DNA of 64,000 nt from Malacoraja senta (GCA_038087875.1 CM075989.1:6262001-6326000), one strand, 5' to 3'. Positions 1,821 through 45,373 are shown, counted from the first letter of the stretch. The notes: generated by a model not told the origin, from the sequence alone. A program made the numbers and translations.

Positions 1821-1851
1821 TGACCTTTAAAGCTGTCAATGCAATGAAGAC

Positions 1852-10166: not shown

Positions 10167-10180
10167 ATGCCGCAGCCAAG
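10167..10180 (+). CDS. RGMA: RGMA coding exon 1 (MPQP-R, 14 nt, phase-2 donor)
   Basis: ATGCCGCAGCCAAG is followed by a strong donor GTAAGC at 10181. It resembles the 14-nt MQPPR first coding exon of mammalian RGMA as I recall it. The phase joins exon 2 in frame, and it lies in a TE-free region. Confidence 0.82.
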
Positions 10181-17665: not shown

Positions 17666-19155
17666 TCTTGTCACTTTGTCACCAGCAAGAAGTCCTGATG
17701 AGAATACGCGATTGGGACGAACACCTCCGCTCTTTGCATTATAATTATCGTTAAAGTGTTGTCAAGGCGATAGGATATACTTTGTACTTGTCTTTCATTT
17801 TCTCCAGCTTTTGCTTTAATACTAAACTGAAGATAATTGGGAAAGGCAAGAGGATTTTTCATACAGCGCTTCTTTGACTAGAATTGTAGTGACTGAAAGG
17901 GTGGTGGCGGAAAAAGATTGAATAGGGACTTTCAGAAAGGAATGGGAAATGTAAATGAAAGGAAAGATCTGCAGTTAAAGCAAAAGAGCAGAGTAGAGGG
18001 GCTAATTGAACTCTTTCATGGAGCTGGCACGGGTACAATGAGATGAATGGCTACTTCCTATCTTTTTGCTTCAATTGTATGAACATTGAGAGGGGCTGGT
18101 GGGATATTGAATCCGTGACTGTGAAGAGCTGGCAAAGGTAACACAGATGGCTGCACAAGAGACCGCAGATGCTGGAGTCTTGTGCAAGAAAGGAACTGCT
18201 GGAGGAACTCAGTCGGGGCAAACAAAATAAAATGAAAAGAATGACTGTCATAAACGCCATGCCTTTCGCAAAGGTAAAAAGAATCATTGGTGTTGTAAGC
18301 GTAAACGCATTATATGTGGAGGAAGGAACTGCAGATGCTGGTTTGCACCAAAGATAGTCACAAAATGCTGGAGTAACTCAGCGGGACGGGCAGCATCTCT
18401 GGAGAGAAGAAGGGTCTCGACCCGTTCCTTCCATCCAGAGATGCTGCCTGTCCCGCTGAGTTACTCCAGCATTTTGTGTCTTTCTAGTATGCATTATATG
18501 ACTAGCGACCCTTCTTCAGACTGGAATTTTATTCTTGAGTCTGAAGAAGGGTCCCGACCCGAAACATCACCTACCCATATTCTCCAGAGATGCTGCCTGA
18601 TCCGCTTGAGTTTGGACTTTTATTTTTAGACCTTAGAGGTTCAGCACGGAAACAGGCCCTTCGGCTGACCAAGTCCACACCGACCAGCAATACACCAGCA
18701 CAATCCTACACACTAGGGACAACTTACAATTTTTTACCAAAGCCAATTAACCTAAACCGGAGCACCTGGAGAAAACCCACTTGGTCACAGCGAGAACGTA
18801 CTAATTCCGTAGAGACAGCACCCATAGTCAGGATCGAACCCAGGTATCTGGAGCTGTAAAGCAATAACTCTACCGCTGCACCACTATGCTGTCCAAACGT
18901 TACTCCAGCACTTTGAATCTTTTTTTGTTGTAAACCAGCATCTGCAGTTCCTGCATCTGCCCTACATTACTGTTTTGTTTTGTTCCTCTTTTGATAAAGT
19001 GTCCATTTGGTATCAAGGAGGGATGTAGGGGAGAGGTGAGGGAGAGAGGTGCAGGATAATACCAGTGTAGAGAATGACGTTCTATTTGTTAACCTGTTCC
19101 CTAGCAAAAACGCTCCTTAAATATTAATGCTATTGAAGAAACTCTCACCTCACCT

Positions 19156-19440
19156 GGGCGGCACGGTGGTGCAGCGGTAGAGTTGCTGCCTTACACCGCC
19201 AGAGACCCGAGTTCGATCCTGACCACGGGTGCTGTCTGTGCGGAGTTTGTATGTTTTCCCTGTGACCGTGTGGGTTTTCTCTGGGTGCTGTTTGTACGTT
19301 AATTGGCTTGGTATATATGTAAAATATCCCTAGTGTGTGTAGGATTGTGTTAATGTGCGGGGATCACTGGTCGGTGTGGTCTCGGTGGGCCGAAGGGCCT
19401 GTTTCCGTGCTGTATCTGTAAACTAAACTAAACTAAAACT
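19156..19440 (+). mobile_element. HE1-type V-SINE
   Basis: gggcggcacggtggtgcagcggtagag...gagttcgatcc...(aaact)n. Confidence 0.88.
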
Positions 19441-22400
19441 ACTGAGTTCCTCCAGCAGGTTTTTTTCTTTGATCTAACACTAAAATATATGTTTCCAAGC
19501 AAAATGCAGGGAAATGTGTGACATATGCATGATTTGATGGCTCCATCTTTGTCACATTGGAAAACAAATGTGGCTGTTCTGTGGTTCAATGATTACAGGC
19601 ACAATAACTGGATCTAAGTTATGAAGTGACCATGGACAAAGAATAAAGTGGGTAATTTAAGCAGGTAACATCTGATAATCATTTAATTTAAAGAATAGCA
19701 GTCACTGTTGGTTGATACCTCCAGTTTCCCTCTCCCCTGAAGAACAGTCTCGACCCAAAACGTCACCCATTCCTTCTCTCCAGAGATGCTGCCTGTCCCG
19801 CTGAGTTACTCCAGCATTTTGTGTCTATCTTCGGTGTAAACCAGCATCTGCATTTGCTGAAGGCTCCACTAATGAATTGGCAAAGCAATGAATATTTGTC
19901 ATTGTCAATGGCAAGCTTTAACGTACAGGGATGCTGTGAAAGGCGTTATCTAATGGCTACTAGTTTTCTTTCCTTTCCTTACCGCGAGACCGACCTTTTA
20001 GCAACACACAGCTCCATGTAAATCTGGTCCTGAGATCTATGAACTGACCCAGTCGACCCAATTCAATGTCCATTCCACTGTTACATTCCCAGCATTATAA
20101 TTGCGAAGCGTCCAGACCCGACACGTCACCTGTCCTTGTTCTCCAGAGATGCTGTCTGACCCGCAGAGTTACACCAGCTCTTTATGTCTTTTTCTTTAAA
20201 TGGTTAAGATTCAGTTTTGCCATTGATTGATTGAAAGATGCAGCTTGGAAACAGGCCCTTCGGCCCATCGAGTCCACGCCAACCCTCGATCACCCGTTCA
20301 CACTAGTTCTTTGTTTATCCCGCTTTCTTACACGCTAGTACAATTTCACAGAGGGCCAATTAACCCACACACCAGCATGCCTTTGGGATGTGGGTCGGAA
20401 ACCAGAGCAGGTGGAAGAAACCCACCAGGTCACAGGAAGAACGTTGAAACTCCACACAGGCAGCACCCGGGGGTCAGGATCGAACCCGGGTCTCTGGCGC
20501 TGTGAGGTGGCAGCTCTACCAGCTGCCACAATGTCACTGAGTGGAGGACAGACTCAAGGGGCTGAAAGGCCTCCTCTATCTCTGCCTTCTCACGTGGAAC
20601 ATGGAAAGCACCTTCTGGGGCATTGTTTGTGTTGCCTCGAGCTCTCCTCTTCACCATGGTACATTTTGTAGTCACTCCAATTGGCATTGTGAGTGTCTTC
20701 AATAGCATTCGTGTTTCATGCAAGATTTTGTTAGAGAACAGGTTTAAAAACAGAACATCAGTTCCCACAATGGTGTTCTCGTTTTGCCATACATCCCACC
20801 CCCCCCCCCCCCTCCCGCCCACCCCCAGTTCTGCTGGATTCCTCCTTGTTAATAGATGGAAGCTTTAACAAAAAGAGAAAGAAATAATAATAATAAACAG
20901 TAAAATAATGCATACTCGCTGACAACACCGATCACCCCCTCTGCCTTTGTGATCGGCACAGAGTTTATGTTAGAAGTTCTTTTCACTTTGTTCCTATTCA
21001 GGAAGCTTTTCTTCCCTTTTGTCTCGCTTCCCAGGCTGAAATAACGTTTTAAAAAATCAGCCTTTTGGATGCGAAGATAGACACAAAATGCTGGAGTAGC
21101 TCAGCGGGTCAGGCAGCACCTCTGGAGAGAAGGAACGGGCGACGTTTCGGGTCGAGACCCTTCTTCAGACGGAAAGTCACAGGAAAGGGAAACGAGAGAT
21201 ATAGACGATGATGAGGAGAGATCTAGAGAACAAATGAGTGAAAAAACATAACGATGATAAAGGATGCAAAAAAGTTACAGCGATAAAAATTATGCAAAAA
21301 AAGTTTTTCTGACTATCTTTGGTTTAAACCAGCATCTGCAGTTCCTTCCTAAACCTTTCGGATGCTTCAGGTGGACTCCCCAATTTAATATGCAATATCT
21401 TGGTAAATGTTTCCAGAGAGTCACTGAGTTTGAATAACCCACCATTCCTTTGATCTCCCCAGTCCCACCACCCATGTCCCCTCGAGCATCCCTGGATTCA
21501 ATGACATCATCGTTGCCCTCAACATCCAACACTCTTCCCCTCTGGAATTCTATTCTGAAATCTCTCTGCTTCTCCTACGTTTTTGTGTCTTTCCGTAAAA
21601 TCGACCTCATCTGAACTTATAGATGCATACGGCATAGAAACAGGTCCTTTACCCTAACTCATCCATGCCGACCAAAATACCCCATCTACGCTAGTCCCAC
21701 CTGCTTGCATTTGGCCCATATCTATTTAGCCCACTACTATTGTCTGTTTATGTGTCTTTTTTTTAGTTTAGAGATACAGGCCCTTTCGCCCTACCGGGTC
21801 CGCGCCGACCAGCGATCCCCGCACATTAACACTATCCTGTACCAACTAGGGACAATTTTTACATTTACCAAGCCAATATACCTATACGTCTTTGCAGTGT
21901 GGGAGGAAACGGAAGCTGTGGACCTGTCCAAATCTGTGATGCCCCATTGTAAGCAGCTTCCCTCTATCCTACAATAAGCAAGTCATGATCTTGCATCAAC
22001 TTTCTTAGCTGTTGTGTTGACTGCAAATGACTTGGAATTTGACGAAGTCTGAACAGACTTTGCTGCAGAGCAAAAACATCAACACACTATGATCCATTGC
22101 AAAGCAGAGGTCTCAGTTTTGCAGATTGCCAAAATACACAGAGATTGACGGGCTCACCATAATTCACATCTGCAGAGTTCAATCCCAGCGTTGTTCCTCC
22201 AAGTGAGGGAATTGGTCAAGTGCCTTTAGTGGGACAGTCTGGGAGGTCTAAGGAGCTTCCCGCTACGTGCAGTGATGTTACAATGAGCTGGAGAACTTGC
22301 CCCTTGTAAACATAAAACACCACGGCACTGAATGTCTTTAGTTTAGTTGAAAGATACAGCATGAAAACAGGCCCTTCAGCCCACCGAGTCTGTGCCGACC

Positions 22401-23629
22401 AGCGATCCCCGCACACTAACACAATCCTACACACACTAGGGACAATTTACAATTTACAAACGTACACACTCCGTACAGATAGCACCCATAGTCAGGATCG
22501 AACTCGGATCTCTGGCACTGTAATGCAGTAAGTCTACCACTGCGCCACTGCGTCAGAGATAATTCATTTGTTGTAATCGACCTTGGGACATCAAGACCCA
22601 AGAGTGTTTAACCGTCAAGGAAAAATTTTGCGCCAACTAACAATTGATTGAAAGATACAGTGTGGAAACAGGCCCTTCGGCCCACTGAGTCCAGGTTGAC
22701 CATCAATCACCCATTCACACTAGTTCCTGGCTATCCCACTTTTCCATCCACTCCTGACACATTCGGGGCGATTTACAGAGGACCCGTTAGCCTACAACAT
22801 CTTTGAGATGTGGGAGGGAACCGCAGCACCCAGAGTCTGCAGAATTAGTGAGAACGTGCAAACTCCACACAGGCAGCGTGTGAGGTCAGGATCGGTCCTG
22901 CGTCTCTGGCACTGTTGGACAGCAACTGCGCCGCTCCATCACGTGCATCAGGAAGGCAGGTTTCCTTCTTGAAAAGATATGGGCGAACTGTGAGGCAGCA
23001 GCGCAACCCGCTGCGCCACTGTGCCGCCCCTGTTGTGTCAACGCTGTACTAAACTGAATGTTCAATGCATACTAAGGAGGGGCAATGCATACAACCCCTA
23101 ACACTGCAAAGAATCACCCCCACCCCCCCCCCCTCACCACCTCCCCAACCCGTCCCCAACTCTACCCCCCTCCACCACCACACCTTCTCCTCGTTGTCAA
23201 TCCACCGGGACAAATAGATCTGGCATTTCCCAAACAGCTGAGCCATGAAGAACTCTGATACCAGTATTGACACAGTGCAAACGGATGCCTGGCATGGTGC
23301 CAGCACCGACTGTTTGATCTCTCCTTGATCTTGTGCCACCTTTATTTATGCTCCACACCTTCACCAGTGGGTTTATCAGATTGCAGGGCTGCAATGGTGT
23401 CGACGCTGTAACGTCAGCTCAGCCTTTCAAGGCAGGCAAAGCCGCCCAGAACACCTCTCCCTCCTTCCCCAAGCCCGGCTGCAAGACCCGCAGTCCTGCA
23501 TCTAGTTTAGTTTAGAGACAAAGGGCCGAGGCAGGCCCTTCGGCCCACCAAGCCCGCATCCTGTACGCGAGCACCACCCAACACACACTAGGGGCAATTT
23601 GCAACTTTACCAGTTAGCCTACAAACCTG

Positions 23630-23858
23630 GGTGGACAAAAGTGCTGGAGAAACTCAGCAGGTGCAGCAGCGTCTATGGAGCGAAGGAAGTGGAAGTGTTC
23701 CCGCCCCCCCCCCTCCCCCCACATCAGCCTGAAGAAGGGTTTCAGCCCGAAACGTTGCCTGTTTCCTTCGCTCCATAGATGCTGCTGCACCCGCTGAGTT
23801 TCTCCAGCATTTTCGTCTATCTTCAATTTTCCAGCATCTGCAGTTCCTTCTTAAACAT
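23630..23858 (+). mobile_element. Fold-back Penelope-derived insert nested in a SINE
   Basis: 16-bp target duplication ttagcctacaaacctg (23614-23629 and 23859-23874) and a hammerhead motif starting at 23729. Confidence 0.85.
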
Positions 23859-24550
23859 TTAGCCTACAAACCTGTACGTCTTTGGAGTGCGTGAGGAAAC
23901 CGGAGCACCCGGGGAAAACCCTCGCGGTCACGGGGAGAACGTACAAACTCCGTACAGACAGCACCTGTAGTCAGGATCGAACCCGGGTTTCCAGCGCTGC
24001 AAGGCAGCAACTCTACCGCGGCGCCGCCGTGCCGCCCAATACCGTGTCGATAGTGGAGCCACAAGGAACTGCAGATGCTGAGATCTGGTGTAAATTCTGT
24101 CACCACAGCCAGTTATTCAATGAAATGTGCAGGAAGGAACTGCAGATGCTGGTTTAAATCAAAGATAGACACAAAATGCTGGAGTAACTCGGCGGGACAG
24201 GCAGCATCTCTGACGTTTCGGGTCGAGACCCTTCTTCAGCCATTCAATTAAATGCACGTTTGTACGTTCTCCCTGTGACCGCGTAGGTTTTCTCCGGGCG
24301 CTCCAGTTCCCTCCCACATTCCAAAGACGTACATTTAAGAGGGTTGTAGGCTAATTGGTTTTGTTAATGTATGTCTGTCATTTAAAAAAAAAAAAAAAAT
24401 GCTAGTATAACTCAATAGGTCAGGCAGCAAGTGCAGAAGAAATAGACTTGAACCAGAACATTGCTTGTTCATTCGTTCTACAGATTCTGCCTGACCCATT
24501 GAGTTACCCCAACACAATTTATTTTACCTGTGAGTGTTCTCACTTTGTGT

Positions 24551-24826
24551 CGGCACGGTGGCGCAGCGCTACAGTTGCTGCCTCACAGCGCCAGAGACCC
24601 AGGTTCAATCCTGACTGCAGGTGCTGTCTGTACGGAGTTTGTACGCTCCCCCTGTGACCGCGTGGGTTGTCCTTCTGCTTCCCACAGATGTACAGGTTTG
24701 TAGGTTAATTGGCTTTTTCTGTAAAAAATGAGTGGAATAGAACTGGTGTACGGGTGGTCATTGGTCGGTACGGACTCAGTGGGCCGAAGGGCCTGTTACC
24801 ACACTGTATCTCTAAACTAAACTAAA
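24551..24826 (+). mobile_element. HE1-type V-SINE
   Basis: A/B boxes, V-domain and (ctaaa)n tail. Confidence 0.85.
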
Positions 24827-27013: not shown

Positions 27014-27394
27014 CAATAGACAATAGGTGCAGGAGTCGGAGTTCTGCCCTTCGAGCCCTGTGATCATGGCTGATCATCCCCAATCAGTATCCTGTTCCTG
27101 CCTTCTCCCCATATCCCCTGACTCCGCTATTTTTAAGAGCCCTATCTAGCTCTCTCTTGAAAGCATCCAGAGAACCTGCCTTCACCGCCCTCTGAGGCAG
27201 AGAATTCCACAGACTCACCACTCTCTGTGAGAAAAAGTGTTTCCTTGTCTCCGTTCTAAATGGCTTACTCCTTATTCTTAAACGGTGGCCCCTGGTTCTG
27301 GACTCCCCCAACATCGGGAACATATTTCCTGCCTCTAGCGTGTCCAAACCCTTAACAATCTTATATGTTTCAATGAGATTCCCTCTCATCCTTC
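27014..27394 (-). mobile_element. CR1/HER1-like LINE 3' fragment inserted in a SINE
   Basis: RRMRGNLIETYKI...TRGH...FFSQRVVSLWNSLP...FKRELD and a (ctattgt)n tail. Confidence 0.88.
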
Positions 27395-28367
27395 TGGGAT
27401 GTTTCCTCCCACATCCCAGAGACATGCAGGTTTGCCAGATAATTGGCATGAAAATTGTTCCTCAGGGGTTGGGGACGGATAAGAAAGTGGGATAACATAG
27501 AAGTATTGCCAAGGGGTGGTCGATGGTTGGGATGAACCCAGTGGGCCAGAGGACCCATTTCCATGCTGCACCTTGCAAGTCATTAACTCTACAGGCGGAA
27601 GGCTTGGAGAAACTTGCGCTAAAATGGAGAGCTGGCAACACTGAAGTGGATGAAATGGTTTATAGTTGAAAATATAAAACATTGTGGCTGCAGTCATTCT
27701 GAAATAGAAACAAGGCATGTTACAGATATCCAGCCGGTCAGGCAGCATCTGCGGAGAGAAAAAGAGTTTCCAATATTCTCTGTTTTTATTAAATGACTCC
27801 GCTCGAGTGTTGGAGTTTGGTATGATATTGATCGTGGCTACAATTAGCTGTTGAACACTGCATTTGTTGTTTGGAAGAGGCTTTATTACAACTTATCAAC
27901 CTGATGGGACAGTGGCAAGGTTTAAAGTAGCCTGACAACGGATTCGAACCAGCTCGAAAACCATTGGCGCTTCACTTTCAAGTCAAGAGTCTTTAAATGT
28001 CATTATTATCGACAATGGAACAATGAAATCCTTAAGGGCCTGTCCCACATGGTCGCGTAATTTGCGTGCCAAGTACACGTAAGTGGGACAGGAGCTTTAC
28101 TTGCAGCAGCATGACTGGCCTGTAAACACAGTGGTCATAGATAACATGATCAACCAAATAAAGACGACAAATCAAAAACACGAATATTAGTGTAAAAAGT
28201 CCACGGTCCTTAGTGCAACCAACACAGTCCATCCGCAGAAACAAACAACTGTAGATGCTGGTTTATACCAAAGATAGACACAAAGTGCTGGAGTAATTCA
28301 GCGGGTCAGGCAGCATCTCTAGAGAAAAGGGATTGGGTAACGTTTTGGACCAGGATCTTCCTTCAGT

Positions 28368-28395
28368 CTGAAGAAGGGTCCCGACCCGAAACGTC
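28368..28395 (+). ncRNA. Minimal hammerhead ribozyme motif (PLE-derived)
   Basis: CTGAAGAAGGGTCCCGACCCGAAACGTC, core boxes intact. Confidence 0.65.
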
Positions 28396-28571
28396 ACCTA
28401 TTCCTTCGCTCCATAGATGCTGCCTCACCCACTCAGTTACTCCAGCACTTTGTGTCCATCAAGACAGTTCACATTTAGGTTTATTATTGTCACATGTACC
28501 GAGGTACCATGAAAAGCTTTGTTTTGCATGCTATGCAACCAGGCCAGATAGACCATACATTGATATAACAT

Positions 28572-28838
28572 GTTTAAGAAAGAACTGCAGATGCTGGAAA
28601 AATCTAAGGTAGACAAAAATGCTGGAGAAACTCAGCGGGTGAGGCAGCATCTATGGAGCGAAGGAATAGGTGACGTTTCGGGTCGAGACCCTTCTTCAGT
28701 TTGAAGGAACAGGTGACATTTCGGGTCGAGACCCTTCTTCTGTCTGAAGAAGGGTCTCGACCCGAAACGTCACCTATTCCTTCGCTCCATAGATGCTGCC
28801 TCACCCGCTGAGTTTCTCCAGCATTTTTGTCTACCTTA
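28572..28838 (-). mobile_element. Fold-back Penelope-derived insert
   Basis: Long inverted arms and the duplication gatataacat (28562-28571 and 28839-28848). Confidence 0.8.
28744..28771 (+). ncRNA. Minimal hammerhead ribozyme motif (PLE-derived)
   Basis: CTGAAGAAGGGTCTCGACCCGAAACGTC, core boxes intact. An antisense copy lies at 28672-28699 in the same insert. Confidence 0.65.
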
Positions 28839-28869
28839 GATATAACATAGTTAGTTAGTGTTTCTAGTG

Positions 28870-29137
28870 TTCAATAGGCTGATGTTTGCTAGGAAGTAGC
28901 TGTTCCTGAACCTGGAGGTCACGGTTTTCAGGCTCCTGTCCCTTCTTTCCGATGGCAGGAGTGAAATGATGGTGTGACCAGGGTGGTGTGGGTTTTTGAT
29001 GATGCTGGCTGCCTATTTGTGGCAGCGACCCCTGTAGATCCCTTCGATGGTGGGGAGGTCAGTATCTGTGATGGACCAGACTGTGTCCACCACTTTTTGT
29101 ATTCTCCTTCCTTCCTGGGCATTCGAGTTGCCGAACC
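28870..29137 (-). mobile_element. Rex1/Babar-type LINE fragment
   Basis: Nucleotide similarity to 2075-2345. Confidence 0.7.
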
Positions 29138-29753
29138 GTTTAATTTTTTTTAAATCAAAAATTGCTGGAAATCTGAATTAATAGCCCAAAACACTGTATC
29201 TATTCAGCAGCTCAGGCAGCTGTGATAGCAACCAGCAGTAACAGTCGAGGATAATCGACCAGTGTCTCCATATTTGTGTAAGGAGGAACTGTGGTTAGAC
29301 CGAAGATAGACACAAAATGCAGGAGTAACTCAGCGGGTCAGACAGCATCTCTAGAGGAAAGGAATAGGTGACGTTTCTGATCGAGACCCTTCACACCCAT
29401 CAGACCAATGCTGCCTGACCCGCTGAGTTTCTCCTGCATTTAGTGTCTCTATATTCCTCTGTTTTAGCGTCTACTGTAGATGTTTAAGTTCCGCTTTGGA
29501 ATCGAGTCCTGGGAGTTACAAGGTGACTATTACCCATTCACTCCTGGCTGGAACTCCTCACACAGACCGTTTGCTGAGAAGCACTGTGGAATATTATTTA
29601 AACAGCATTTTATGTTAAAATTGGGGGTGAATCATCGCAATTAAAGTCACGAGGGCCAGCATTGCATGACACAAGTATTCTTTCCAAAATCAGGGGGTTT
29701 AGTTTACAAAGAGGCAATTCTTTTTTGGTAACATTTTTCTTTGAGGGTATCTC

Positions 29754-29790
<37 letters not shown>

Positions 29791-30166
29791 GAAGGCCGTG
29801 GGGGCAAGTCAATGCATATTTTTTAAGGCAGAGATTGACAGATTAGTACAGGTGTCTGGGGTTATGGGGAGAAGGCGGGAGAATGGGTTTGAGAGGGAAA
29901 GATAGATCAGCCAAGATTGAATGGCGGAGTGGACTTGATGGGCCGAATGGCCTAATTCTGTTCCTATGTGAACTGATGAATTTAGCGAAGTATTTTGCTC
30001 TCTCCTTCTTTGGGGCTTTCCTCCTTAGATCTCAATCTGTGGGCGCTCCACCAACTTTTATTTGCAGTTTTCTGTTTTACTTTCTCGTTGGCTGTGTTTC
30101 TGTTTCTCTCGCTGTAGAAATAATCTGGCTGTTTCACAGAGAGGCTGGATATGTTCTACGTTTCTG

Positions 30167-30491
30167 GCTCCCTCCCTCTCCCTCATTCCCCCCTTCCCTC
30201 CCTCCCTCTCTCTCGCACTCCCTCTCCCTTCCTCCCCCTCTCTCTCTCCCCTCCCTCTCTCCCCTTCTCACTCTCTCCCCCCTCCCTCTCTCCCCTTCCC
30301 TCTCTCCCCTTCTCACTCTCTCCCCCCTCCCTCTCTCCCCTTCCCTCTCTCCCCCTCCCTCTCTCTCCCTCCCTCTCTCCCCCCTCCCTCCATCCCTCTC
30401 CCCCTCCCTCTCTTTCCCCCCTCTCTTTCCCCTCCCTCTCTCTCCCCTCTCTCCCCTCCCTCCCCCTCCCTCTCCCCCCCCCCCCCCCCCC
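30167..30491. repeat. C/T polypyrimidine tract ending in a poly-C run
   Basis: Directly visible, about 230 bp upstream of exon 2. Confidence 0.9.
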
Positions 30492-30720
30492 GGCCTGGCG
30501 GTGGTTCAGTGCCGGCAGTGAGTGCTGTGATTCAGGGTGGAGCGAGCATCGTGACTCCCCCTCTGCCCCATTCGCCCAGCGAGGAGGAAGGAGGGAGCTT
30601 TCCCCGAGACACATGATTGATGGAGCTGCGGACTTGTCGGCGGTTTCTTTCTCCTTGGCGTGTGTGGTTCTGATCTTTTTTTATTTTTATTCCCCCCCCC
30701 CCCCTACATCTCTCACTCAG

Positions 30721-30854
30721 GGTGAGCAGAGTCGGAGACTTGGCTTTGTGTGCGACCCCAGGCTGGGCTGGATGGATGGGAATGGGGAGAAGGGACGACC
30801 CATCCGGCCACCGAATCCTGCAGATCCTCACCATCGTCCTCTGCCTCCCAGCAG
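30721..30854 (+). CDS. RGMA: RGMA coding exon 2 (signal-peptide region ...AGWMGMGRR...ILTIVLCLPA)
   Basis: Polypyrimidine tract plus CAG ending at 30720 and donor GTAAAA at 30855. It carries the RGM-typical WMGMGR motif followed by a hydrophobic stretch. The phase-1 end matches exon 3. Confidence 0.88.
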
Positions 30855-32094
30855 GTAAAACAAAAACCAAGCAAAGACATTCATTCCATCGCACAAAGAA
30901 AAGTTGGAAAGTCAGTGACTAGTTTTGCTCTCTGTCTCTGAGTTGGAGTTGCGTGGGTTGAAGTGCGGAGCGTTTGGATGTAGCAAAACAACATTGAGCC
31001 AGCTTACTTACTTACTGGAGCCCAGCTCACTCACAGCGTTATATAGCAATGGCATTTGCAACTTGTTTGTCTGATCAATTCTCTCCCTTAAAGTAGACGT
31101 CAAGTCACACTCACGGGAACAGTGTGGAAAACAGGGGAAGGGGGGGGGAGAGAAGAAAAAGTTTTAGAAAGTTTTTGTATTTGAAAGTTCTGCTGCGGTG
31201 GGATAAGTTTGTCTTTAAGACTTTGAGTTTGTTGGGGGAACTTTTTGTCCTGTGATCGAGACGAGAGACGAGAAGAAACCAAGCCCAGAGCGTTGGACTT
31301 TGAGTAAACTGGCGATGTATTTGTACAAGTCTTTCTCCCCATTTCATGTGTGAACTTAAAATGCCTCTCTTTGTTTTTTTTAAGACGTTGAGTACAAATG
31401 AGCCAGCCTGCTGTTGTTGTTGTTCTCGCCTTTTGCCCAACCAAGTGCTTTGAGGGTCTTACAAAGATCCCCCGCAGAATCGGTCTGTTTTCATTGGGGG
31501 GATGGGCGGCGCTTGGCAACTTAAGCACAACTTTTTTTTTACCACTTTGTGAAACACTTCTTGAAAATAAAATCTGGCGCAATCTGTTAAGGAACAAAAA
31601 TACTTTGTGCATACATATTGTTCTCCCGTGTTTGACTTGCATTTGCAACGCAGTACAAACCCTTCACTGCAGTTTAACCCTAATCTTGATCCATTTTTGG
31701 AGAATATCTACACCTCCTTGATTTAATCACTTAAAGAGTCAAAATGCAGTAACAATCTTTAATTGTGCCAAACACCCATAGGATTTACATAAACAGGTAT
31801 CTGACTAATTAGTCTTTAGGTTGGCGGAGAGAGACTTTGTCGTGTTTCATCAACTCTCTTCCCAGAAGCATAAAAATCAAAAATAACACATCGTCGTTTT
31901 GCAAATCTGCTTGCACAGAACAAAACCAATCCTCCCACGAACTGTTTCCCAATAAACCAGTTTAATTGCAGATTCCATTTGGCAATAAGCACTGGAGTGG
32001 ATAAACATATTGATTACACTGCACGTTTGATTGAGATTAAGCCTGATATAGGAAACGCGATGGTAACGAGTGAGATTAGGATTGAGGATCAATG

Positions 32095-32515
32095 TTGTGT
32101 GTCTCTGTGTGTGTGTCTCTCTGTGTGTGTGTCTCTCTGTGTGTGTGTCTGTGTCTCTGTGTGTGTGTCTGTGTCTCTGTGTGTGTGTCTGTGTCTCTGT
32201 GTGTGTGTCTCTGTCTCTGTGTGTGTGTCTCTGTCTCTGTGTGTGTGTCTCTGTCTCTGTGTGTGTGTCTCTGTCTCTGTGTGTGTGTCTCTGTCTCTGT
32301 GTGTGTGTCTCTGTCTCTGTGTGTGTGTCTCTGTCTCTGTGTGTGTGTCTGTGCGAGCGCCTCTGTGTGACTGTTTGTGTCTGTGTGTCTCTGTTTGTGA
32401 GTGTGTGCCTCTCTGTGTGTCTCTGGGTGTGCGATCCTCTATGTGTCTCTGTATGTGTCTGTGTGTCTCTGTTTTGTGACTGTCTATGTGTGTGTGTGTC
32501 TGTATGCGTGTGAGA
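32095..32515. repeat. Compound GT/CT microsatellite with 20-bp unit gtgtgtgtctctgtctctgt
   Basis: Directly visible. Confidence 0.95.
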
Positions 32516-32746
32516 GAGTACTGGCAATATATTTCTGAATACCTTAATTGTGTTTATTCACAGTTCTGACCTTTTTTCGTTTTTAAATTCATGCTTATTT
32601 TCCTTGTCAGACCCCCCCCCCCTCCCCTCCTCCCCTCCTCCCCCTCCCCCTCCTTTCATGCCCTTTCTTTCTCTTGAAGTCCCTTCTGAGTTACCTATGT
32701 GGGAAAATCGAGCTGAGCTCCATTGAAGGCATTGTAATGCAAATTA

Positions 32747-34363
32747 CAGTGCCCTCCATACTGTTTGGGCCAAAGACCCATCATTTATTTATTTGCCTCT
32801 GTGCTCCACAATTTGAGATTTGTAATAGAAAAAAATCGCATGTGGTTAAAGTGCACATTGTCAGATTTTAATAAAGGCTATTTTTATACATTTTGGTTTC
32901 ACCATGTAGAAATTACAGCAGTGTTTATACATAGTCCCCCCATTTCAGGGCAAAATAATGTTTGGGACACAGCAATGTCATGTAAATTAAAGTAGTCATG
33001 TTTAGTATTTTATTGCATATCCTTTGCATGCAATGACTGCTTGAAGTCCGCGATTCATGGACATCACCAGTTGCTGGGTGTCTTCTCTGGTGATGCTCTG
33101 CCAGGCCTGTATTGCAGCCATCTTTAGCTTATGCTTGTTTTGGGGGGTAGTCCCCTTCAGTTTTCTCTTCAGCGTATAAAAGTCATGCTCGATTGGGTTC
33201 AGATCGGGTGATTGACTTGGCCACTCAAGAATTGACCATTTTTTAGCTTGGAAAAACTCCTTTGTTGCTTTAGCAGTATGTTTGGGATCATTGTCTTGCT
33301 GTAGAATGAACCGTCGGCCAATGAGTTTTGGGGCATTTGTTTGAACTTGAGCAGATAGGATGTGTCTATATTATGCTACTACCATCAGCAGTTGTATCAT
33401 CAATGAAGATAAGTGAGCCAGTACCTTCAGCAGCCATACATGCCCAGGCCATAACACCCCCACCACCGTGTTTCACAGATGAGGTGGTAGGCTTTGGATC
33501 TTGGGCAGTTCCTTCTCTCCTTCATACTTTGCTCTTGCCATCACTCTGATATAAGTTAATCTACATCTCATCTGTCCACAAGACCTTTTTCCAGAACTGT
33601 GGTTGCTCTTTTAAGTACTTCTTGGCAAACTGTAACCTGGCCATCCTATTTTTGCAGCTAACCAATAGTTTGCATCTTGCAGTGTAGCCTCTGTATTTCT
33701 GTTCATGAAGTCTTCTGCGGACAGTGGTCATTGACAAATCCACACCTGACTCCTGAAGAGTGTTTCTGATCTGTCGGACAGGTGTTTGGGGATTTTTCTT
33801 TATTTTGGAGAGAATTCTTCTGTCATCAGCTGTGGAGGTCTTCCTTGGCCTGCCAGTCCCTTTGCGATTAGGAAGCTCACCAGTGCTCTCTTTCTTCTTC
33901 ATGATGTTCCAAACAGTTGATTTTGGTAAACCTAAGGTTTGGCTGATGTCTCTAACAGTTTTATTCTTGTTTCTCAGTCTCATAATGGCTTCTTTGACTT
34001 TCATTGGCACAACTTTGGTCCTCATGTTGATAAACAGCAATAAAAGTTTCCAAAGATGGAAAGACTGGATGAAAGACTAGGTGTTGAGAGCTCTCTTATA
34101 CCTGCATTAAGGAGGCAATTAAACACACCTGTGAAGCCATGTGTCCCAAACATTATGGTGCCCTGAAATGGGGGACTATGTATAAACACAGCTGTAATTT
34201 CTACATGGTGAAACCAAAATGTATAAAAATGGCCTTTATTAAAATCTGACAATGTGCACTTTAACCACATGTGATTTTTTTCTATTACAAATCTCAAATT
34301 GTGGAGTACAGAGGCAAATAAATAAATGATAGGTCTTTGTCCCAGACATTATGGAGGGCACTG
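32747..34363 (-). mobile_element. Full-length Tc1-like DNA transposon (1617 bp) with long terminal inverted repeats
   Basis: TA target duplication at 32745-32746 and 34364-34365. Terminal inverted repeats of about 220 bp begin CAGTGCCCTCCATA. Internal transposase remnant. Confidence 0.96.
33002..34025 (-). pseudogene. Disabled Tc1 transposase (DD34E)
   Basis: HTH region, GRPRKT, WTDE, VKHGGG, QQDNDPKH, WPSQSPDLNPIE with 34 residues between the second D and E, ending GYAIKY*. Premature stops at 33561-33563 and about 33523, and a frameshifting deletion near 33371. Confidence 0.93.
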
Positions 34364-34919
34364 TAGATGATCAGCCCAGTCCATATTGCCTATTCTTTCT
34401 GTGTCAAATGGAAGGTAGTGACTTATTTGCATGTTATTATAAATATTTATTTCGAACAGTTAGTTTAATATTGTGCTCAGTGTATAGAGCAAGCTATTTT
34501 AAAGTCACAAGCCCCAGTCTCTGATTGAAACAAGTTATTTTTATATAAGATCCGTGGTGATATATACCTTTTTAAATGTGCATCTTTTCATTGAAGCAAG
34601 ATTGCAATTGTTCATTCAGTGAAAGCTGCTTTAGAATCGAATGGACGCTGTTTCGAAAGCAACTTGCATTCTTTGATTTTTAAATATGCAGTGTAATTGT
34701 ATAATGTGCAGGAAGGAATTGCAGAAGCTGGTTTACACCGAAGATAGACACAAAATGCTGGAGTAACTCAGCGGGACAGGCAGCATCTCTGGGTAGAAGG
34801 AATGGGTGACTTTTCAGGTTGAGACCCTTGTTCAGACTGAGAGTCAGGGGGGAGAGAGAGACACGGAGATAAGGAAGTGTGAGGTGTGAAAACAAGACAT
34901 CAAAGGGGATGTGGCTCAG

Positions 34920-35082
34920 GACATGTCGCGGGGTGACGCCTGTATGGTCGTGAGTAGTCGCTCAAAGAGTCCGACCTTGTTCTGGTCGCCACTGGATTTT
35001 CAACATCTTGAAAATTTTCGGAGACCTGCTGTGACTATGACGGGTAAGTGGCCGAAAACATCGCGCAAGTGGGACAGACCCT
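34920..35082. mobile_element. Truncated Harbinger-like MITE (one TIR), related to 11287-11605
   Basis: Ends aagtgggacagaccct and shares the ctggtcgcc and ttgaaaatt motifs with the 11.3-kb copy. Confidence 0.6.
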
Positions 35083-38000
35083 TGACCCTTAATTGTTTCA
35101 TTCGATTGCCCTTCCTGTGGGACAAAGACCAGTGTCCCATCTTTTACTCCTAATCCATGCCAATACAAGGAGATGATCTAAACTCCACAGTTGATGCCTC
35201 TGGGATGGTAAGGTGAGCATAGTGGCGATCTACTCAGGGCAGTGTTTTTCAAGATAGACACAAAGTGCTGGAGTAACTCAGTGGGTCAGGCAGCATCTCT
35301 GGAGAAAAAGGCTGGCTGACGTTACCTGGACTCACTTTTAGTTTGATGATGAAGGGACCCAACCTGAAACATCACCCATTCTTTTATTGCAGAGATGCTG
35401 CCTGACCCGCTGAATTACTCCAGCACTTTGTGTCTATCTTTGGTATAAATCAGCATCTGCAGTTCCTTTCTACGCACAGTGTTAAGACTGACAGGATTTA
35501 GACTAAAACGCACAAAATGCTGGAATAACTCAGCGGATCAGCAGCATCTCTGGAAGACGTGGATAGGCAACGTTTTGGGTTGGGGCCTTTCTTCAGATTC
35601 TGAAACATCAATTGTCCATGTCCTCCAGAGATGCTGCCTGACCCACTGAGTTATTTTTGTGTTTTAGTTCAAGATGCTCCTGATTCCAGCAACTGCAGTT
35701 CCTTGTGTCCAGAAGACCATAACACATCGGAGCAGAATTAGGCCATTCAGCCCATTCGAGTCTGCTCCTGTAGGATTTAGTGTAGAAAGGAACTGCAGAT
35801 ACTAGTTTCTACCGAAGATAGACACAAAGTGCTGGAGTAACTCAGCGGGTCAGACAGCATCTCTGGCGAAAAAGGATGGGTGATGTTTAGGGTCGGGACT
35901 CTTCAGAGGCACTTTCAGTCTGAAGAAGGGCCCCAGCCCGAAATGCCACCCATCCTTTGTCTCCAGAGATGCTGCCTGACCCTTTGAGTTACTCCAGCAC
36001 TTTGTGGCTATCCTCTAGGATTTAGGCTACGTTGTATGGCCATTGCAGCCAAATAGCCGCACTCACCATCCAAGCTCTACATTTGAACAAGATGCAAGAA
36101 TGCACTTGTTCTCCATGGAACAGGACTCTGTGAGAGGCAGTGGTTCGGGGAAGGGACAATAATTGGGAAAAGAACTGCCAAAGTAAATTCAGGATAGTCC
36201 TCAATTTCTGAAACGTGACTCTCTGTAAAGATATTGGGCTGGGATCAAGGTGATTCACACCAAATTGTGCACTTCACTGGTGAGTTAAATTAATCATTTA
36301 CTTAGTTTAATAGCGTATCTACTCAAAGATTTGTATCATATTAAAGATAACTGCAATTAAACAAGCATCAGTTGGTTTTATAATTCTGACTAACCGATCT
36401 AATTTAAGAAATTAATTATGAAGCAATTATCTACACACTGTGTCTCAGTGTATATCATTATTAAATTAAGAAATGGTAACCCGTGCACTGAGAGATTTAT
36501 AGCAGACACAAGGAACTGCAGATGCTGGAATATTGAGCAAAAAAAGACACAAGTGCTGGAGTAACTCAGCAGATGAGGCAGCAGAGTGCTGGAGTAACTC
36601 AGCAGGTCAGGCTGCATCCATTCCGTGGAGAACATGGATAAGGGGAAGTTTCGGGTCGGTGCCCTTCTTCAGACTGCAGGGTCCCGACCCGAATAGTCAC
36701 CCATCCTTTTTCTCCACAGACGCTGACTGACCTGCTGGGTTACTCCAGCACTTTGTGTCTATCTGTTAGGATTTCGGCTAGGGTTGTATAGATGAGATTT
36801 ATAGCTCGTGCCTGAAACCAAGAACAACAAAGTACGTCGGTGTTTCAGCAGCTGGTTGCCGTGTTTGCCCCAGTGCATTTTTTTGGAGTGGAGTTACAGC
36901 TGCCGTGTGAGGTGCAATACAGGGCAGCACAGCCCCAACCCTGGCTGTGGGACTATAATTGCAGGGGGAGGTGGGTACATCTGCCTGGGCTCCCAATCCA
37001 TTTTGTCTGCCCCATCCCACACTGGGAGGTGATTGAATGACACGGGCGAAAAGCAGAGGGGATTTGCCTTGGCTATGTTGGCCTCCATGGGTCAAAGATA
37101 CCGTCACCGCTCGCAGTGCCAGCAGTTCTTTAGGGCAGTATCCAATGGACAGTGCCTCAGTAAAAGGCATTGCATTCAATGCAAGAGCGTTGGAACTGAC
37201 AGGAAAAGCTATATTACAAGCAACGTCCGTCATCTCTCATAGAGTCGTGCAGTGTGGAAACAGGCCCTTCAGTCCAATTTGTCCATAGCAACCAAGGTGC
37301 CCCCATCTGCACTAGTCCCACCTGCCTGCGTTTGGCCCATATCCCTCTCAACTTACCCTGTCCATGTACCTGGATAGGTGATGTTTCGGGTCAGGATCTT
37401 TCTTCAGACTGATCATAGAAGATGATGGGTGGGGGGGTGGGGGGGGAAGACCCAGAGAAGAGATGGGGTGGGACAAAGCAAGTGATAGGTGGATTCAGGG
37501 GAGGGTATAGATTGGCAGGTGGATGCAGTAAGTGCCAAAGGCTAGAGGTGAACAGGAAGCAAGGAGTCTTGGATAAAGAGAGGAGAGGATATAGGTGGAA
37601 GGGGTTCAGGTTGTGTGGGGGAGGGGAGGAGGATGGGCTCATGGGAGAACTGATGGAGGGGCAGAGAAGGGGAGAAAAAAGAGTGGTGGGGGTTACTTAA
37701 AATTGAAGAACAGCGTTCATTCCTAAGATAGACACAAAGAGCTGGTGTAACTCAGCGGGACAGGCAGCATCGCGTTGGGTTGTACGCTACCCAATTGGAA
37801 TATGAGTTGCTTTTCCTCTAGTTTGTGTGTGGCCTTTCTCTGGCAATGGAGGAGGCCCCAGGCAGAAAGGTCAGGAAGAGGATGGAAAGGGAGTCAAAAG
37901 GTTGAGCAATACTTTGGCTGTTTTATGCCATGTATCATTGCTGGTCCCGATGGCCCAATGGGTTGTGACCTGGTGTGTCAGTTGCATGTGTTTTCCAGTC

Positions 38001-38851
38001 TAAATTGGCACAGACATGGTGGGCCGAAGGGCCTGTTCCTGTGCTGTACTATTCTAAGTTCTATTTTCACGCTGTTGAGCAAACAGTGAGGTCGATTAGC
38101 GTGGGTGTCAGGGGTTATGGGGAGAAGGGGGGGGGGAGTGGGGTTGAGAGGGAAAGATAGATCAGCCATGAATGAATGGTGGAGTACACGTGGGTAGACA
38201 CAAAAAGCTGGAGCGGATCAGGCAGAGAAGGAAAATGGGCGACGTTTACAGGTCGAGACCCTTCTTCAGACTAGTGTATACTTGATGGGCCGAATGGCCG
38301 AATTCTGCTCCTGGTACCTACGACCTTGCCTCAGAGTGATAGGGGTGTGAGTTAGATTCACTCTGGAGATGAAACTGCAGAAATCTAGGCTGGAACTCCA
38401 GTGTTGAGAGGGGCAAGGTTTAAAGGAGATGTGCGGGGCAGGTTTTATTTACACAGAGGGTGGTGAGTGCCTGGGACGTGCTGCCGGGGGGTGGTGGTCG
38501 AAGCAGATACGACAGTGGCATTTAAAATACTTTTGGATAGGTATATGGATAAGGAGGGAAATGGGTTATGTGTAGGTAGATAAGTGATGGGCTCGGCATC
38601 ACGTTGAGCATAGACATTGTGGGATGAAGGGCCTGTTGTTGTACTCTACCATTCTATGTACCAGGAGAAGGATGCACGGTTAGAGGTGCAGTCTTTTGGA
38701 TGAGCTGAAACTGGAATATCTGGGGTATTATGGACTTTTTGCCTGCGCTCATTACTACTGCACTTGTCTGGGTTTAGGTTTGTTATCGTCATGTGTACTG
38801 AGGTACAGTGAAAAGGTTTGTTGCATGCTATCCAAACAGGTCAGATAATCC

Positions 38852-39251
38852 ACTGATCTCCCGGTGGCTCAGCACTTCAACTCCCCCTCCCATTCCGAAT
38901 CCGACCTTTCTGTCCTGGGCCTCCTCCACGGCCAGAGTGAGGACCACCGGAGATTGGAGGAGCAGCACCTCATATTCCGCTTGGGCAGTTTGTACCCCAG
39001 CGGTATGAACATTGACTTCTCTATTTTCATGTAGTCCCTACTATCTCCTCCCCTTCTCAGCTCTCCCTCAGCCCTCTGGCTCTTCCTCTACCTTTCTTCT
39101 TCCCACCCCCACCCTCACATCAGTCTGAAGAAGGGTCTCGACCCGAAACGTTGCCTATTTCCTTCGCTCCATAGATGCTGCTGCACCCGCTGAGTTTCTC
39201 CAGCATTTTTGTCTACCTTCGATTTTCCAGCATCTGCAGTTCCTTCTTAAA
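38852..39251 (+). mobile_element. Penelope-like retroelement 3' fragment (GIY-YIG endonuclease C-terminus, 3' UTR and hammerhead motif)
   Basis: Translates DLPVAQHFNSPSHSESDLSVLGLLHGQSEDHRRLEEQHLIFRLGSLYPSGMNIDFS, typical of PLE endonuclease C-termini. Flanked by the duplication cagataatcc (38842-38851 and 39252-39261). Confidence 0.85.
39125..39152 (+). ncRNA. Minimal hammerhead ribozyme motif in Penelope-like 3' end
   Basis: CTGAAGA-A-GGGTCtcGACCC-GAAA-CG-TT corresponds to the CUGANGA box, stem II, the GAAA box, a palindromic ACGU in place of stem III, and the UH site. Confidence 0.7.
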
Positions 39252-39261
39252 CAGATAATCC

Positions 39262-39825
39262 TTTACACTCATACAATCAAAGAAAACTCGAGTGCAATAG
39301 GTAGAGCAAAGGCAAAAATGCAGAGTGCAGAATATGGTTCTCAGCATTGTAACGCATCCGTTCCACAGACAAAGTCCAATGTCCGCAGTGGGTCAGAGGT
39401 GAGTTGGACAGTCCCCCACCTTACGCAAGGACTGTTCAGAATGCTGATGATAGCAGGGAAGAAGCTGTCCCTGAGTCTGGTGGTGTGGGCTATCAAGCTT
39501 CTGTGCCTTCTGTCGGATGGCAGCAGGGAGAAGCAGGAATGGCCGGGGTGGGACAAGTCTTTGACTATGTTGGCTGCTTTTCTGATGGAGTCGATGGTGG
39601 GGAGTCTGGTCTGGGTGATGGACTGGGCTCCATCTACAACTCTGCAATGTCCGGTGGTTTTGGCCAGAGCTGTTCTCAAACCAAGCTGAGGTGCAACCCA
39701 ACAGTAGGCTTTCTATGGTGCATCTGTAGATGTTTGTACGGGTCATTGGAGACATGCCCAGTTTTCTCAGTCTCCTGAGTGAGTAGAGGCGTTGGCGTGC
39801 CTTGTTGGCTGCCGTAGCAACGTGG
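39262..39825 (-). mobile_element. Rex1/Babar-type LINE 3' fragment (degenerate)
   Basis: KARQRLYSLRRLRK...ESLLLGC and SHPGHSCFSLLPS...RLRDSFFP occur in shifted frames. Confidence 0.8.
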
Positions 39826-40439
39826 CGAGAAGCTGTTCCTTTCGACTGTCCATGCTCGTGGCACATCATTTAACACTGAGATCCACCACGAGACCCTGAA
39901 CCACTTCTGTGTCGCAGGACCCCCATCTTGATGATGACACTGGCCATTGCATGAACTCCCCGCCAGCACGGACTTTGACCGACCAGGGAGGAAAGGCACA
40001 AAAACACTGCAGTAACTCAGCGGGTCAGGCAGCATCTCTGGAGAGAAGGAATGGGTGACGTTTCGGGTCGAGACCCTTCTTCAGACATTGAGGTCTTTCT
40101 TCCAGCCAGTCAGCTCAGTCTGAAGAAGGGTCTCGACCCGAAACATCGCCTATTCCTTCTCTCCGGAGATGCTCCCTCACCCGCTGAGTTATTCCAGCTT
40201 TTTGTGTCTACCTTCAGCTCAGTTGGACTTTGTTCACATTCCCAACACCAGACGTCTAAACACTCTATTCTGAGCTCTGTTCCTTGAGGAGATGACCAGG
40301 CAGATAGAGGCAGAGCGTTGAGGATATGCTCGACACCTCCCTGTGGGTGAAAATGCGAGTTTTGTGTATTATTTTATTTTATTCTTCATTATTAATAAAT
40401 TATTAATTATAAATATTATTTATGAGTTATTATTGTGTG

Positions 40440-45303: not shown

Positions 45304-45339
<36 letters not shown>

Positions 45340-45373
45340 ATTTTGTTTTTTCTGCAAACACACATGATATGAA

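Follow-up and report, generated by a model that had tools for sequence, protein, structure and literature searches.

Hammerhead motifs in the RGMA introns of a skate are probably non-cleaving ends of an abundant Penelope-like retrotransposon

Introduction

The ultraconserved intronic hammerheads of amniotes are single-copy, conserved and canonical. Minimal hammerheads (min-HHRs) are known from the pseudo-LTRs (pLTRs) of metazoan Penelope-like elements (PLEs), as described by Cervera and de la Pena (2014, PMC4209133), and for non-LTR retrozymes a recent preprint reports that eight of nine tested dimers did not cleave (Li, Clavereau, Pollet 2026, 10.64898/2026.07.22.740005). So far, internal two-strand priming on uncleaved RNA has been described for a single lizard element, in vitro (Frangieh et al. 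2024, PMC11167929).

Here we analyse a 64,000-nucleotide stretch of the Malacoraja senta genome (GCA_038087875.1 CM075989.1:6262001-6326000; the window), for which an earlier note had proposed that hammerhead motifs could act on the RGMA pre-mRNA. We consider it highly probable that these motifs come from a very abundant Penelope-like retrotransposon, whose hammerhead-bearing ends lie in both orientations in the RGMA introns and decay neutrally, and that they likely never cleave the pre-mRNA. A ribozyme controlling RGMA would matter, but the evidence points against one; the copies do provide a large natural record of PLE insertion.

The RGMA locus and its motifs

The RGM gene on the + strand of the window is intact, with four exons encoding 437 aa (Table 1). 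For its N-terminal domain the highest score is to RGMA (122.8 bits), ahead of HJV (103.4) and of comparable RGMB fragments (at most 99.1).

All 13 motif positions given in the earlier note carry the sequence described there, and the core pattern has 13 matches in the window and none in any of 30 approximate dinucleotide shuffles. Copies were graded with a minimal-hammerhead descriptor comprising the core, the G10.1-C11.1 pair, a stem II of at least 4 bp, palindromic 15.2-16.2 and UH. The four sense and four antisense copies called intact all pass it, although the antisense copies at 24239 and 28699 lack stem I, and each of the five sense copies called decayed has a change in core or palindrome. 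As an inventory the list is an undercount: a search with nhmmer recovers 86 pieces of this repeat from the window (37 on the + strand, 49 on the -), and one more exact antisense copy is found past the RGMA stop codon, at 61785-61812. The covariance-model search suggested earlier, run on the window with Rfam/cmscan, returned no hammerhead family among its 39 matches at E<=10. The miRNA-type matches from the same search correspond to palindromes and simple repeats.

Table 1. Coordinates of RGMA and of the hammerhead-bearing insertions in the window
Feature	Position	Strand	Remarks
RGMA coding exon 1 (MPQP-R)	10167..10180	+	donor GTAAGC; joined four-exon frame open, 437 aa
RGMA intron 1	10181-30720		
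RGMA exon 2	30721..30854	+	
RGMA intron 2	30855-47050		
RGMA exon 3	47051..47559	+	RGM_N and start of RGM_C
RGMA exon 4, coding part	58759..59415	+	RGM_C
Sense minimal hammerhead motif (C3 to H17), intron 1	23729..23756	+	downstream arm of head-to-head insertion; 16-bp target duplication at 23614 and 23859
Sense minimal hammerhead motif, intron 1	28368..28395	+	downstream arm of palindrome ~28241-28453
Sense minimal hammerhead motif, intron 1	28744..28771	+	downstream arm of insertion 28572-28838
Single head-to-head insertion	28572..28838		antisense arm with long tail, short antisense filler, sense arm with short tail; hairpin perfect over 98/98 bp; target duplication of 10 bp (28562, 28839)
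5'-truncated Penelope-like copy, intron 2	38852..39251	+	GIY-YIG C-terminus (38855-39034), pLTR, hammerhead (39125-39152), long tail; target duplication of 10 bp (38842, 39252)
Antisense motif	21141..21168	-	intact core, stem I 2 bp
Antisense motif	24212..24239	-	intact core, deletion directly after cut site, no stem I
Antisense motif	28672..28699	-	partner arm of 28744, no stem I
Antisense motif	40057..40084	-	upstream arm of head-to-head pair with 40120
Decayed sense copy	18541..18568	+	palindrome G16.2 to A
Decayed sense copy	35920..35947	+	C15.2 to T, U16.1 to C
Decayed sense copy	40120..40147	+	G16.2 to A
Decayed sense copy, intron 3	51160..51187	+	C3 to T
Decayed sense copy, intron 3	54133..54160	+	G12 to A, stem II broken

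The parent element

Judged by sequence, the motifs are minimal hammerheads from the pLTR of a Penelope-like element, and the description of them as Penelope-derived, with ACGU as the palindrome and 2 bp in stem I, is borne out. Tandem pLTR hammerheads are found in two full elements, L063 and L064. In the full-length tandem parent L063, located elsewhere in the genome, the two hammerheads lie 3918 nt apart in repeats that are 99% identical, with a 1224-aa frame for reverse transcriptase (RT) plus GIY-YIG endonuclease (EN) between the hammerheads. Pfam matches to this frame are weak (RVT_1, E 6e-4; GIY-YIG, E 1.4e-3), both falling below curated cut-offs, and an NCBIfam search gave no match; YIDD and YIGET-type motifs are visible in the long frames, and young frames of more than 1000 aa are present in the genome. 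The GIY-YIG C-terminus reported ahead of 39125 is real (59 aa, identical at 45 of 58 positions to the C-terminus of a full-length element); this copy sits in intron 2, not intron 1.

A CX4CxxC motif ahead of the EN in L063-L072 matches the Neptune linker definition, CX2-5CxxC between RT and EN, and by this linker motif alone the element likely belongs to the Neptune clade. The working label 'Poseidon-like' was dropped because of the same motif. Features of EN+ PLEs are also present, namely partial tandem and inverted pLTRs, a one-sided tail of 30-40 bp and short target duplications. Within the pLTR, an acceptor-like pyrimidine tract and CAG precede many cores, and a candidate splice donor is missing in the youngest subfamily; the single junction pattern searched for a spliced pLTR that might give a different stem I had 0 copies. 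The first ATG of the long frame lies 163 nt after C3, past the tail.

Abundance and orientation of the copies

The 28-nt core has 43,537 exact copies genome-wide (21,973 on the + strand and 21,564 on the -), against 0 for a reversed-pattern control. With a background of ~22 exact cores per Mb, ~1.4 would be expected in the window, which holds 7. Counted as events per 100 kb, RGMA has 79, its flanks 61 and other sampled regions 0-75. These densities put RGMA at the top of the sampled range and speak against a reading as plain background. Because the core occurs so many times across the genome, RGMA is densely hit but not special, and a special role for the motifs at this locus is not supported. 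Hammerhead-pattern matches in cartilaginous-fish introns should be read with caution, as repeat background. Cross-species comparison of the stretch was dominated by paralogous copies, with no listed piece spanning it.

Orientation was scored in 1.397 Mb inside other oriented genes, 34 of 521 events being dropped as duplicated modules. The remaining 487 events include 343 solo copies and 112 head-to-head pairs. Sense and antisense counts were 138 and 132 for solos, 147 and 142 for hammerhead-spanning copies and 26 and 16 for intact copies (4 and 4 within RGMA). The sense depletion that the earlier note had looked to as a genome-wide test was not seen in these 1.397 Mb, where a depletion of under ~20% would be below detection. 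A nominal antisense excess in introns, present in the first 0.8 Mb before de-duplication and enlargement of the sample (78/106, p=0.046; 74/101, p=0.049), reflected a single insertion repeated in duplicated complement-regulator modules and disappeared after both steps.

The hammerhead fold and its decay

The conserved core CUGAnGA...GAAA...UH is present. Across the aligned copies, the extra nucleotide between 9 and 10.1 is A in 95%, the 10.1-11.1 pair is most commonly G-C (207/314) and the 15.2-16.2 palindrome is CG in 161 of 314, the remainder being mostly CpG decay; there is no stable helix III. Stem I is 2 bp in both the consensus and the youngest element, and the typical helix I of 4-5 bp is absent. 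With two search patterns that differ by one fixed letter, 26,790 copies have C at position 1.3 and 433 have the pairing T. A longer-stem-I subfamily was rejected on these counts, which are consistent with C-to-T mutation. The 5-bp-stem-I variant, a form known from rays, had 0 copies genome-wide.

The catalytic G12, which lies in a CpG, is A in 24% of the 314 aligned copies, and transitions at seven other well-aligned CpG positions reach 12-22%. By this measure G12 is unprotected family-wide and decays like any CpG, although a single exapted copy may escape such a test. Stem covariation, whose absence was one of the two refuting conditions named in the earlier note, shows no excess over the control: the score is 0.199 against 0.198 in shuffles, 229 of 500 of which reach it (25 distinct rows from one family of shallow divergence). 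The changes that do keep pairs are one-sided, from U-A to U-G; of the 314 copies, 42 carry such a change at 10.4-11.4 and 62 at 2.1-1.1. Because of these changes, and because the core is identical across subfamilies whose upstream sequences differ, the master elements may still depend on the fold.

Prospects for cleavage of the RGMA pre-mRNA

Cleavage of the RGMA pre-mRNA is unlikely given the 2-bp stem I, the lack of two-sided covariation, the decay of G12, the lack of sense depletion and the pairing of motifs with antisense arms. The last of these bears directly on the earlier proposal that the sense copies 28368 and 28744 dimerise through ACGU and cut intron 1 during transcription. Both cores are intact and 376 nt apart, all dimer pairs are legal, and PLE hammerheads are described as having low dimer activity in vitro (PMC4209133). 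Transcription of each copy, however, follows that of its own upstream antisense arm, which is complementary in 98/98 bp for 28744 and in 77/98 columns for 28368. In the folding model the active dimer lies 62-82 kcal/mol above the free ensemble (+65 kcal/mol for the 28340-28800 construct suggested in the earlier note), and even when stripped down to 56-mers the copies favour an inactive duplex, by 13 kcal/mol. The probability of stems I and II for either copy in context is 0, and that of stem I in minimal constructs is at most 0.0004. With a stem I of 2 bp, covariation at shuffle level and G12 unprotected, we give dimer cleavage of intron 1 almost no chance of being correct. The folding model predicts the alternative already raised in the earlier note, in which the copies are silenced by their own antisense arms. 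In polyA reads from a relative, of which ~6% of the run was covered, molecule ends do not pile up at the cut sites; libraries of fragmented polyA RNA would not reveal such ends, and we give this result no weight.

Folding models argue against self-cleavage. Protein-dependent cleavage, as in the Anolis PLE, lies beyond what such models capture. Could the element protein, when expressed, bind the retained tail of solo sense copies such as 39125, fold the hammerhead and cut host pre-mRNAs? Intact sense copies are not depleted (26 versus 16), G12 is unprotected and copies do not begin at the cut site. The Anolis PAc hammerhead is described as cleaving only with PAc protein, yet the same source reports no in vivo RNA reads ending at the PAc site (PMC11167929). 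The tail region is kept in the skate copies and the long young frames noted above could supply a protein, but we think this route very unlikely.

A further suggestion is that some individual RGMA copies, cleaving or not, have taken on a regulatory role, for instance as dsRNA hairpins for editing or splicing control. The perfect 98-bp hairpin 2 kb upstream of exon 2, the high local density and the pyrimidine tract plus CAG ahead of many cores would suit such a role. A perfect hairpin is nevertheless expected from a recent single insertion with a target duplication, such pairs make up 112 of 487 sampled events and there is no sign of locus-specific constraint, so that co-option, too, has only a slim prospect of being right. 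The reading of the motifs as neutrally decaying retrotransposon ends is the one we retain.

Ends, pairs and the mechanism of insertion

Among solo copies, the 5' end lies within ~10 nt of C3, the 5' edge of the core, in 131 of 312, and at offsets 27-30, around the cut site, in only seven. Copies have two preferred 3' ends ~30 nt apart and target duplications of 10-16 bp. Head-to-head pairs combine a long-tail with a short-tail arm in 73 of 94 cases (50% expected, p=4e-8), their arms share subfamily letters (27/27, 35/36 and 17/20) and a flanking direct repeat of at least 7 bp is found in 43 of 111, versus 3.8% in shuffles. These pairs are single insertions, typically joining one long-tail and one short-tail arm. 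An excess of G, looked for as a cap-derived trace of a transcription start, occurs at 5' junctions at one position (16/28, p=0.001) and not at the other two. Junction fillers are often derived from the element or the host.

Since 5' ends lie at the core edge rather than at the cut site, and since pairs join long and short arms, the data suggest two-strand priming on uncleaved RNA. Reverse transcription would begin internally, ~100 or 130 nt past the core in the RNA, much as it does in vitro for the Anolis element, and would run through the uncleaved hammerhead; a start near the RNA 5' end would give stumps of 105-140 nt, and priming from both nicked target strands would be likely to yield palindromes. 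In a pre-mRNA each palindrome is predicted to fold into a long hairpin with the core buried, and solo copies are predicted to have no usable stem I.

Tentatively, and aware that it may well prove wrong, we put forward a broader reading. The PLE hammerhead in this lineage would be a catalytically disabled relic: the RNA would begin three bases ahead of the core, at the Inr-like TCAGT, which would keep stem I from forming, and internal priming near the RNA 5' end would flood the genome with several hundred thousand SINE-like stumps of 105-140 nt. Palindromes would arise by twin priming by a protein dimer, with one of the two RT start sites used per target strand. If true, this would explain both the PLE tail found at one end only and the inverted pLTR by one mechanism. 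From the genomic side, the long and short arms, target duplications and 5'-end pile-up themselves support internal priming on both strands from RNA that had not been cleaved. In the open literature searched we found no description of the skate family or of the long-plus-short arm statistic; the family may already be catalogued elsewhere.

Comparison with known systems

The skate motifs share with the min-HHRs described in PMC4209133 the type I core, the extra nucleotide 9/10.1, G10.1-C11.1, palindromic 15.2-16.2 and the lack of stem III, as well as a pLTR location and dispersal in thousands, both as single copies and as pairs on opposite strands. Here and in a D. virilis variant helix I has 2 bp, as against 4-5 bp in Schistosoma families, helix II is 4-5 bp against 7-8, and there is no two-sided covariation here. 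Copy number exceeds the 2,000-9,000 given for Schistosoma, coelacanth and Xenopus, with the proviso that counting methods differ (PMC4209133).

As described by Craig et al. (2021, PMC8557442), Neptune-clade EN+ PLEs have the same single frame with RT, C-terminal GIY-YIG and linker CX2-5CxxC, the same partial tandems and inverted 5'-truncated copies and the same 30-40 bp tail at one end; the skate element has a long, proline-rich N-terminal region (total length of the frame 1224 aa), and its clade is assigned by motif only. PAc, the Poseidon element of Anolis, similarly has two internal RT start sites bounding the tail, an unprocessed RNA template and nicking and extension of both target strands (PMC11167929). 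It belongs to another PLE clade, however, and its ORF begins at stem II, in contrast to the first ATG here. Penelope of A. vaga (Arkhipova et al. 2013, PMC3846280) shows the same head-to-head pLTRs, one-arm tail, 8-10 bp target duplications, junction palindromes and Inr-like motif in the pLTR. The model presented there is self-priming on an antisense template, whereas two independent primings would account no less well for the long-plus-short pairing with diverse junctions in the skate.

Non-LTR retrozymes, as reported in the preprint, are likewise non-autonomous pLTR derivatives with type I hammerheads, found in vertebrates including one chondrichthyan, but form head-to-tail tandem arrays, whereas the window copies are dispersed solos and inverted pairs (10.64898/2026.07.22.740005). 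The sampled events, mostly solos and head-to-head pairs, do not fit a retrozyme identity. The preprint's chondrichthyan tables may include the skate family. Finally, the ultraconserved intronic hammerheads of amniotes likewise have a hammerhead core inside an intron, according to a review (PMC6765202) that cites Lunse et al. (RNA Biol 14:1499). The skate copies differ from them in being repeats, with neutral CpG decay and a 2-bp stem I.

Repeat abundance and host gene

All 13 hammerhead motifs listed in the earlier note lie at its coordinates, and the core pattern matches the window 13 times against none in 30 approximate dinucleotide shuffles; a search of the window with Rfam gave 39 matches at E ≤ 10, none of them to a hammerhead family. 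Searching with a profile of 12 window copies recovered 86 pieces of one ~135-nt repeat (37 on the + strand, 49 on the − strand), making the listed motifs a subset. The 1.94-Gb genome contains 43,537 exact copies of the 28-nt core, split evenly between the strands (reversed control: 0); seven are in the window against ~1.4 expected, and 500 kb of other samples contain 12, near the genome mean. Insertion events number 79 per 100 kb in RGMA, 61 in its 100 kb flanks and 0–75 in other genes, placing RGMA at the top end of a continuum; density is higher in several GC-rich regions. Extrapolating roughly from 521 events in 1.56 Mb, there may be several hundred thousand insertions genome-wide. The repeat content resembles that of a cartilaginous fish. 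The motifs are real, their class is known and the insertions are ordinary.

The host gene is an intact four-exon RGM (437 aa, GT–AG introns) with Pfam RGM_N and RGM_C domains. Its N-terminal domain scores highest with RGMA among comparable solved fragments and its C-terminal part matches RGMB chains only, so that the paralogue call rests on the N-terminal score and on an exon-2 motif that we take to indicate RGMA. AATAAA is absent between the stop codon and the end of the window, and the 3′ end of the gene may lie beyond the window or use a variant signal. The frames matching Pfam ALKBH8_N probably belong to another LINE family, as fragments of its C-terminal part.

Features in the window and in Penelope-like element (PLE) loci from elsewhere in the genome (L063–L068, own coordinates)
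Feature	Position	Strand	Remarks
RGM exons	10167–10180, 30721–30854, 47051–47559, 58759–59415	+	joined open frame
Hammerhead copies	23729, 28368, 28744 (starts)	+	intron 1
Hammerhead copy	39125 (start)	+	intron 2
Pyrimidine tract and CAGT	39080–39124		example
Hairpin	28572–28838		one of several pairs
Region after stop codon	59416–64000	+	AATAAA absent
Tc1/mariner-type transposon	32745–34365		intron 2; inverted arms (196 nt) 96% alike
Its transposase	within 32745–34365	−	two frames, HTH_Tnp_Tc3_2 and DDE_3
ALKBH8_N-matching frames	2053–2529, 39393–39869	−	
Minisatellite	5574–6104		period 23 nt
Minisatellite	32020–32492		period ~20 nt
L063, PLE frame	3376–7050		near-intact
L064, PLE frame	3421–7023		near-intact
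L065, PLE frame			near-intact
L067, pol fragment	7535–9046		immediately after PLE copy
L068, PLE copy	215–2950		2.7-kb minisatellite

The parent element

The 39125 copy is a 400-bp, 5′-truncated insertion with a 10-bp target duplication. It opens with the GIY-YIG C-terminus that had been noticed ahead of the hammerhead: 59 codons, with 45 of 58 residues shared with the corresponding end of a full-length element. The best 40 scored of 2266 genomic candidates, the 39125 copy itself excluded, are 91–94% identical. Ten long-frame loci were chosen from 150 scored of 25,153 RT-thumb candidates. In L063 a 1224-aa frame lies between two hammerheads spaced by 3918 nt; the locus is a partial tandem with 99% identity between its repeats, and L064 is similarly organised. 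Near-intact frames of 1092–1224 aa, in which a long insert rich in proline occupies the N-terminal part, accompany such repeats; the family was recently active. Pfam matches to RVT_1 and GIY-YIG in the parent frame are weak and under the cut-off. In L068 the pseudo-LTR stretch between stop codon and hammerhead has grown into a minisatellite, whilst the fragment in L067 is, judging by motifs, presumably LTR-retrotransposon-like.

Probable origin of the stumps and head-to-head pairs

The 3′ ends cluster near profile positions 105 and 135. Among 312 solo copies, 131 have 5′ ends within ~10 nt of C3 (the 5′ edge of the core), 72 farther upstream and 95 inside the element across some 60 nt, with 14 unclassified; only seven of the 312 fall at offsets 27–30 around the cut site, suggesting that templates were mostly uncleaved at this hammerhead. 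The upstream TCAGT is retained to three bases in 22 copies and to four in nine, a drop suggestive of an Inr-like site as the 5′ end of the RNA; an internal promoter is described for D. virilis Penelope. A pyrimidine tract and CAGT, resembling an Inr as well as a 3′ splice site, end the differing upstream sequences of several subfamilies (15 sense and 23 antisense copies before de-duplication).

Head-to-head pairs, which make up 112 of 487 events, are single insertion events. They join a long to a short tail in 73 of 94 classifiable cases (p = 4e-8), their arms have common subfamily letters, their junctions vary (100 distinct in 112) and a direct repeat of at least 7 bp flanks 43 of 111, against 3.8% in shuffles. 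Twin priming from both nicked target strands could generate such pairs; self-priming is the alternative proposed in the literature (PMC3846280). One-sided tails and inverted pseudo-LTRs are described there and in PMC8557442, and the mechanism statistics are the sole part possibly new to specialists.

Hammerhead activity

The consensus of 314 aligned copies comprises CUGAAGA, an extra A, a stem II of 4–5 bp closed by G10.1–C11.1, GAAA, the ACGU palindrome and H17. The caution that stem I is only 2 bp holds: 2.3–1.3 and 2.4–1.4 are mismatched in these copies and in the youngest tandem element. Across the genome, 433 copies could form a third pair and 26,790 could not, and no copy of a five-pair variant occurs. 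Pair-keeping changes on one side are seen between subfamilies, but over 25 distinct rows the covariation score is the same as the mean of the shuffles. Catalytic G12 has become A in 24% of copies after insertion, comparable to other CpG positions; remaining core positions diverge by 3–8%, close to the least variable downstream positions, and a rank test reaches significance, though subfamily-diagnostic sites and the choice of copies that match at the 5′ end act as confounders.

The proposal that 28368 and 28744 form an active dimer fares poorly in the folding model, where forcing it costs 62–82 kcal/mol (37 °C), a penalty that rises when the temperature is set to 10 °C. Each is the downstream arm of its own head-to-head insertion, the preceding arms matching at 77 of 98 bases for 28368 and 98 of 98 for 28744 (the latter event flanked by a 10-bp duplication). 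The alternative suggestion, silencing by their own antisense arms, agrees with the model, which buries both cores in long hairpins. With arms removed, none of 16 ordered pairs of the four sense copies is predicted to favour the active form; active dimers fall 10–17 kcal/mol below the free dimer in preference, and two of the 16 lack a legal pair. Metazoan minimal hammerheads are reported to cleave weakly even as dimers (PMC4209133), eight of nine Xenopus dimers are described as lacking cleavage in a preprint (10.64898/2026.07.22.740005) and the Anolis hammerhead reportedly requires its protein (PMC11167929). The case against dimer cleavage draws on models and analogies. The RGMA gene span holds 19 multi-piece events; perfect or near-perfect intramolecular dsRNA hairpins of 80–100 bp in its pre-mRNA are likely ADAR substrates.

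Active cutters within introns would be expected to be depleted in sense orientation. We examined 1.397 Mb inside other genes, oriented by same-strand runs of Sushi or fn3 exons, with gene bounds inferred rather than annotated. A nominal antisense excess in the first 0.8 Mb arose because one insertion was repeated within duplicated modules; after 34 of 521 events were removed as duplicates, sense/antisense counts were 138/132 for solos and 147/142 for hammerhead-spanning pieces. Intact motifs stand at 26/16 (p = 0.16), and at 4/4 in RGMA. Within the sample's power such a depletion is not seen, which counts against active cutting. The family is also abundant in relatives, from which three runs of DNA and one of polyA RNA were aligned to 27900–29650; molecule ends do not pile up there, although fragmented polyA libraries cannot reveal cut ends.

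Comparison with known elements

The linker from RT to endonuclease carries CX4CxxC, in keeping with how Craig et al. (PMC8557442) define Neptune, and by this motif the element likely belongs to that clade. The two 3′-end clusters correspond to the PLE tail as already known; for the Anolis element that tail is described as marking two internal RT start sites (PMC11167929), and CUGAAGA, the extra A, G10.1–C11.1, GAAA and ACGU are features of the minimal hammerheads described by Cervera and de la Pena (PMC4209133).
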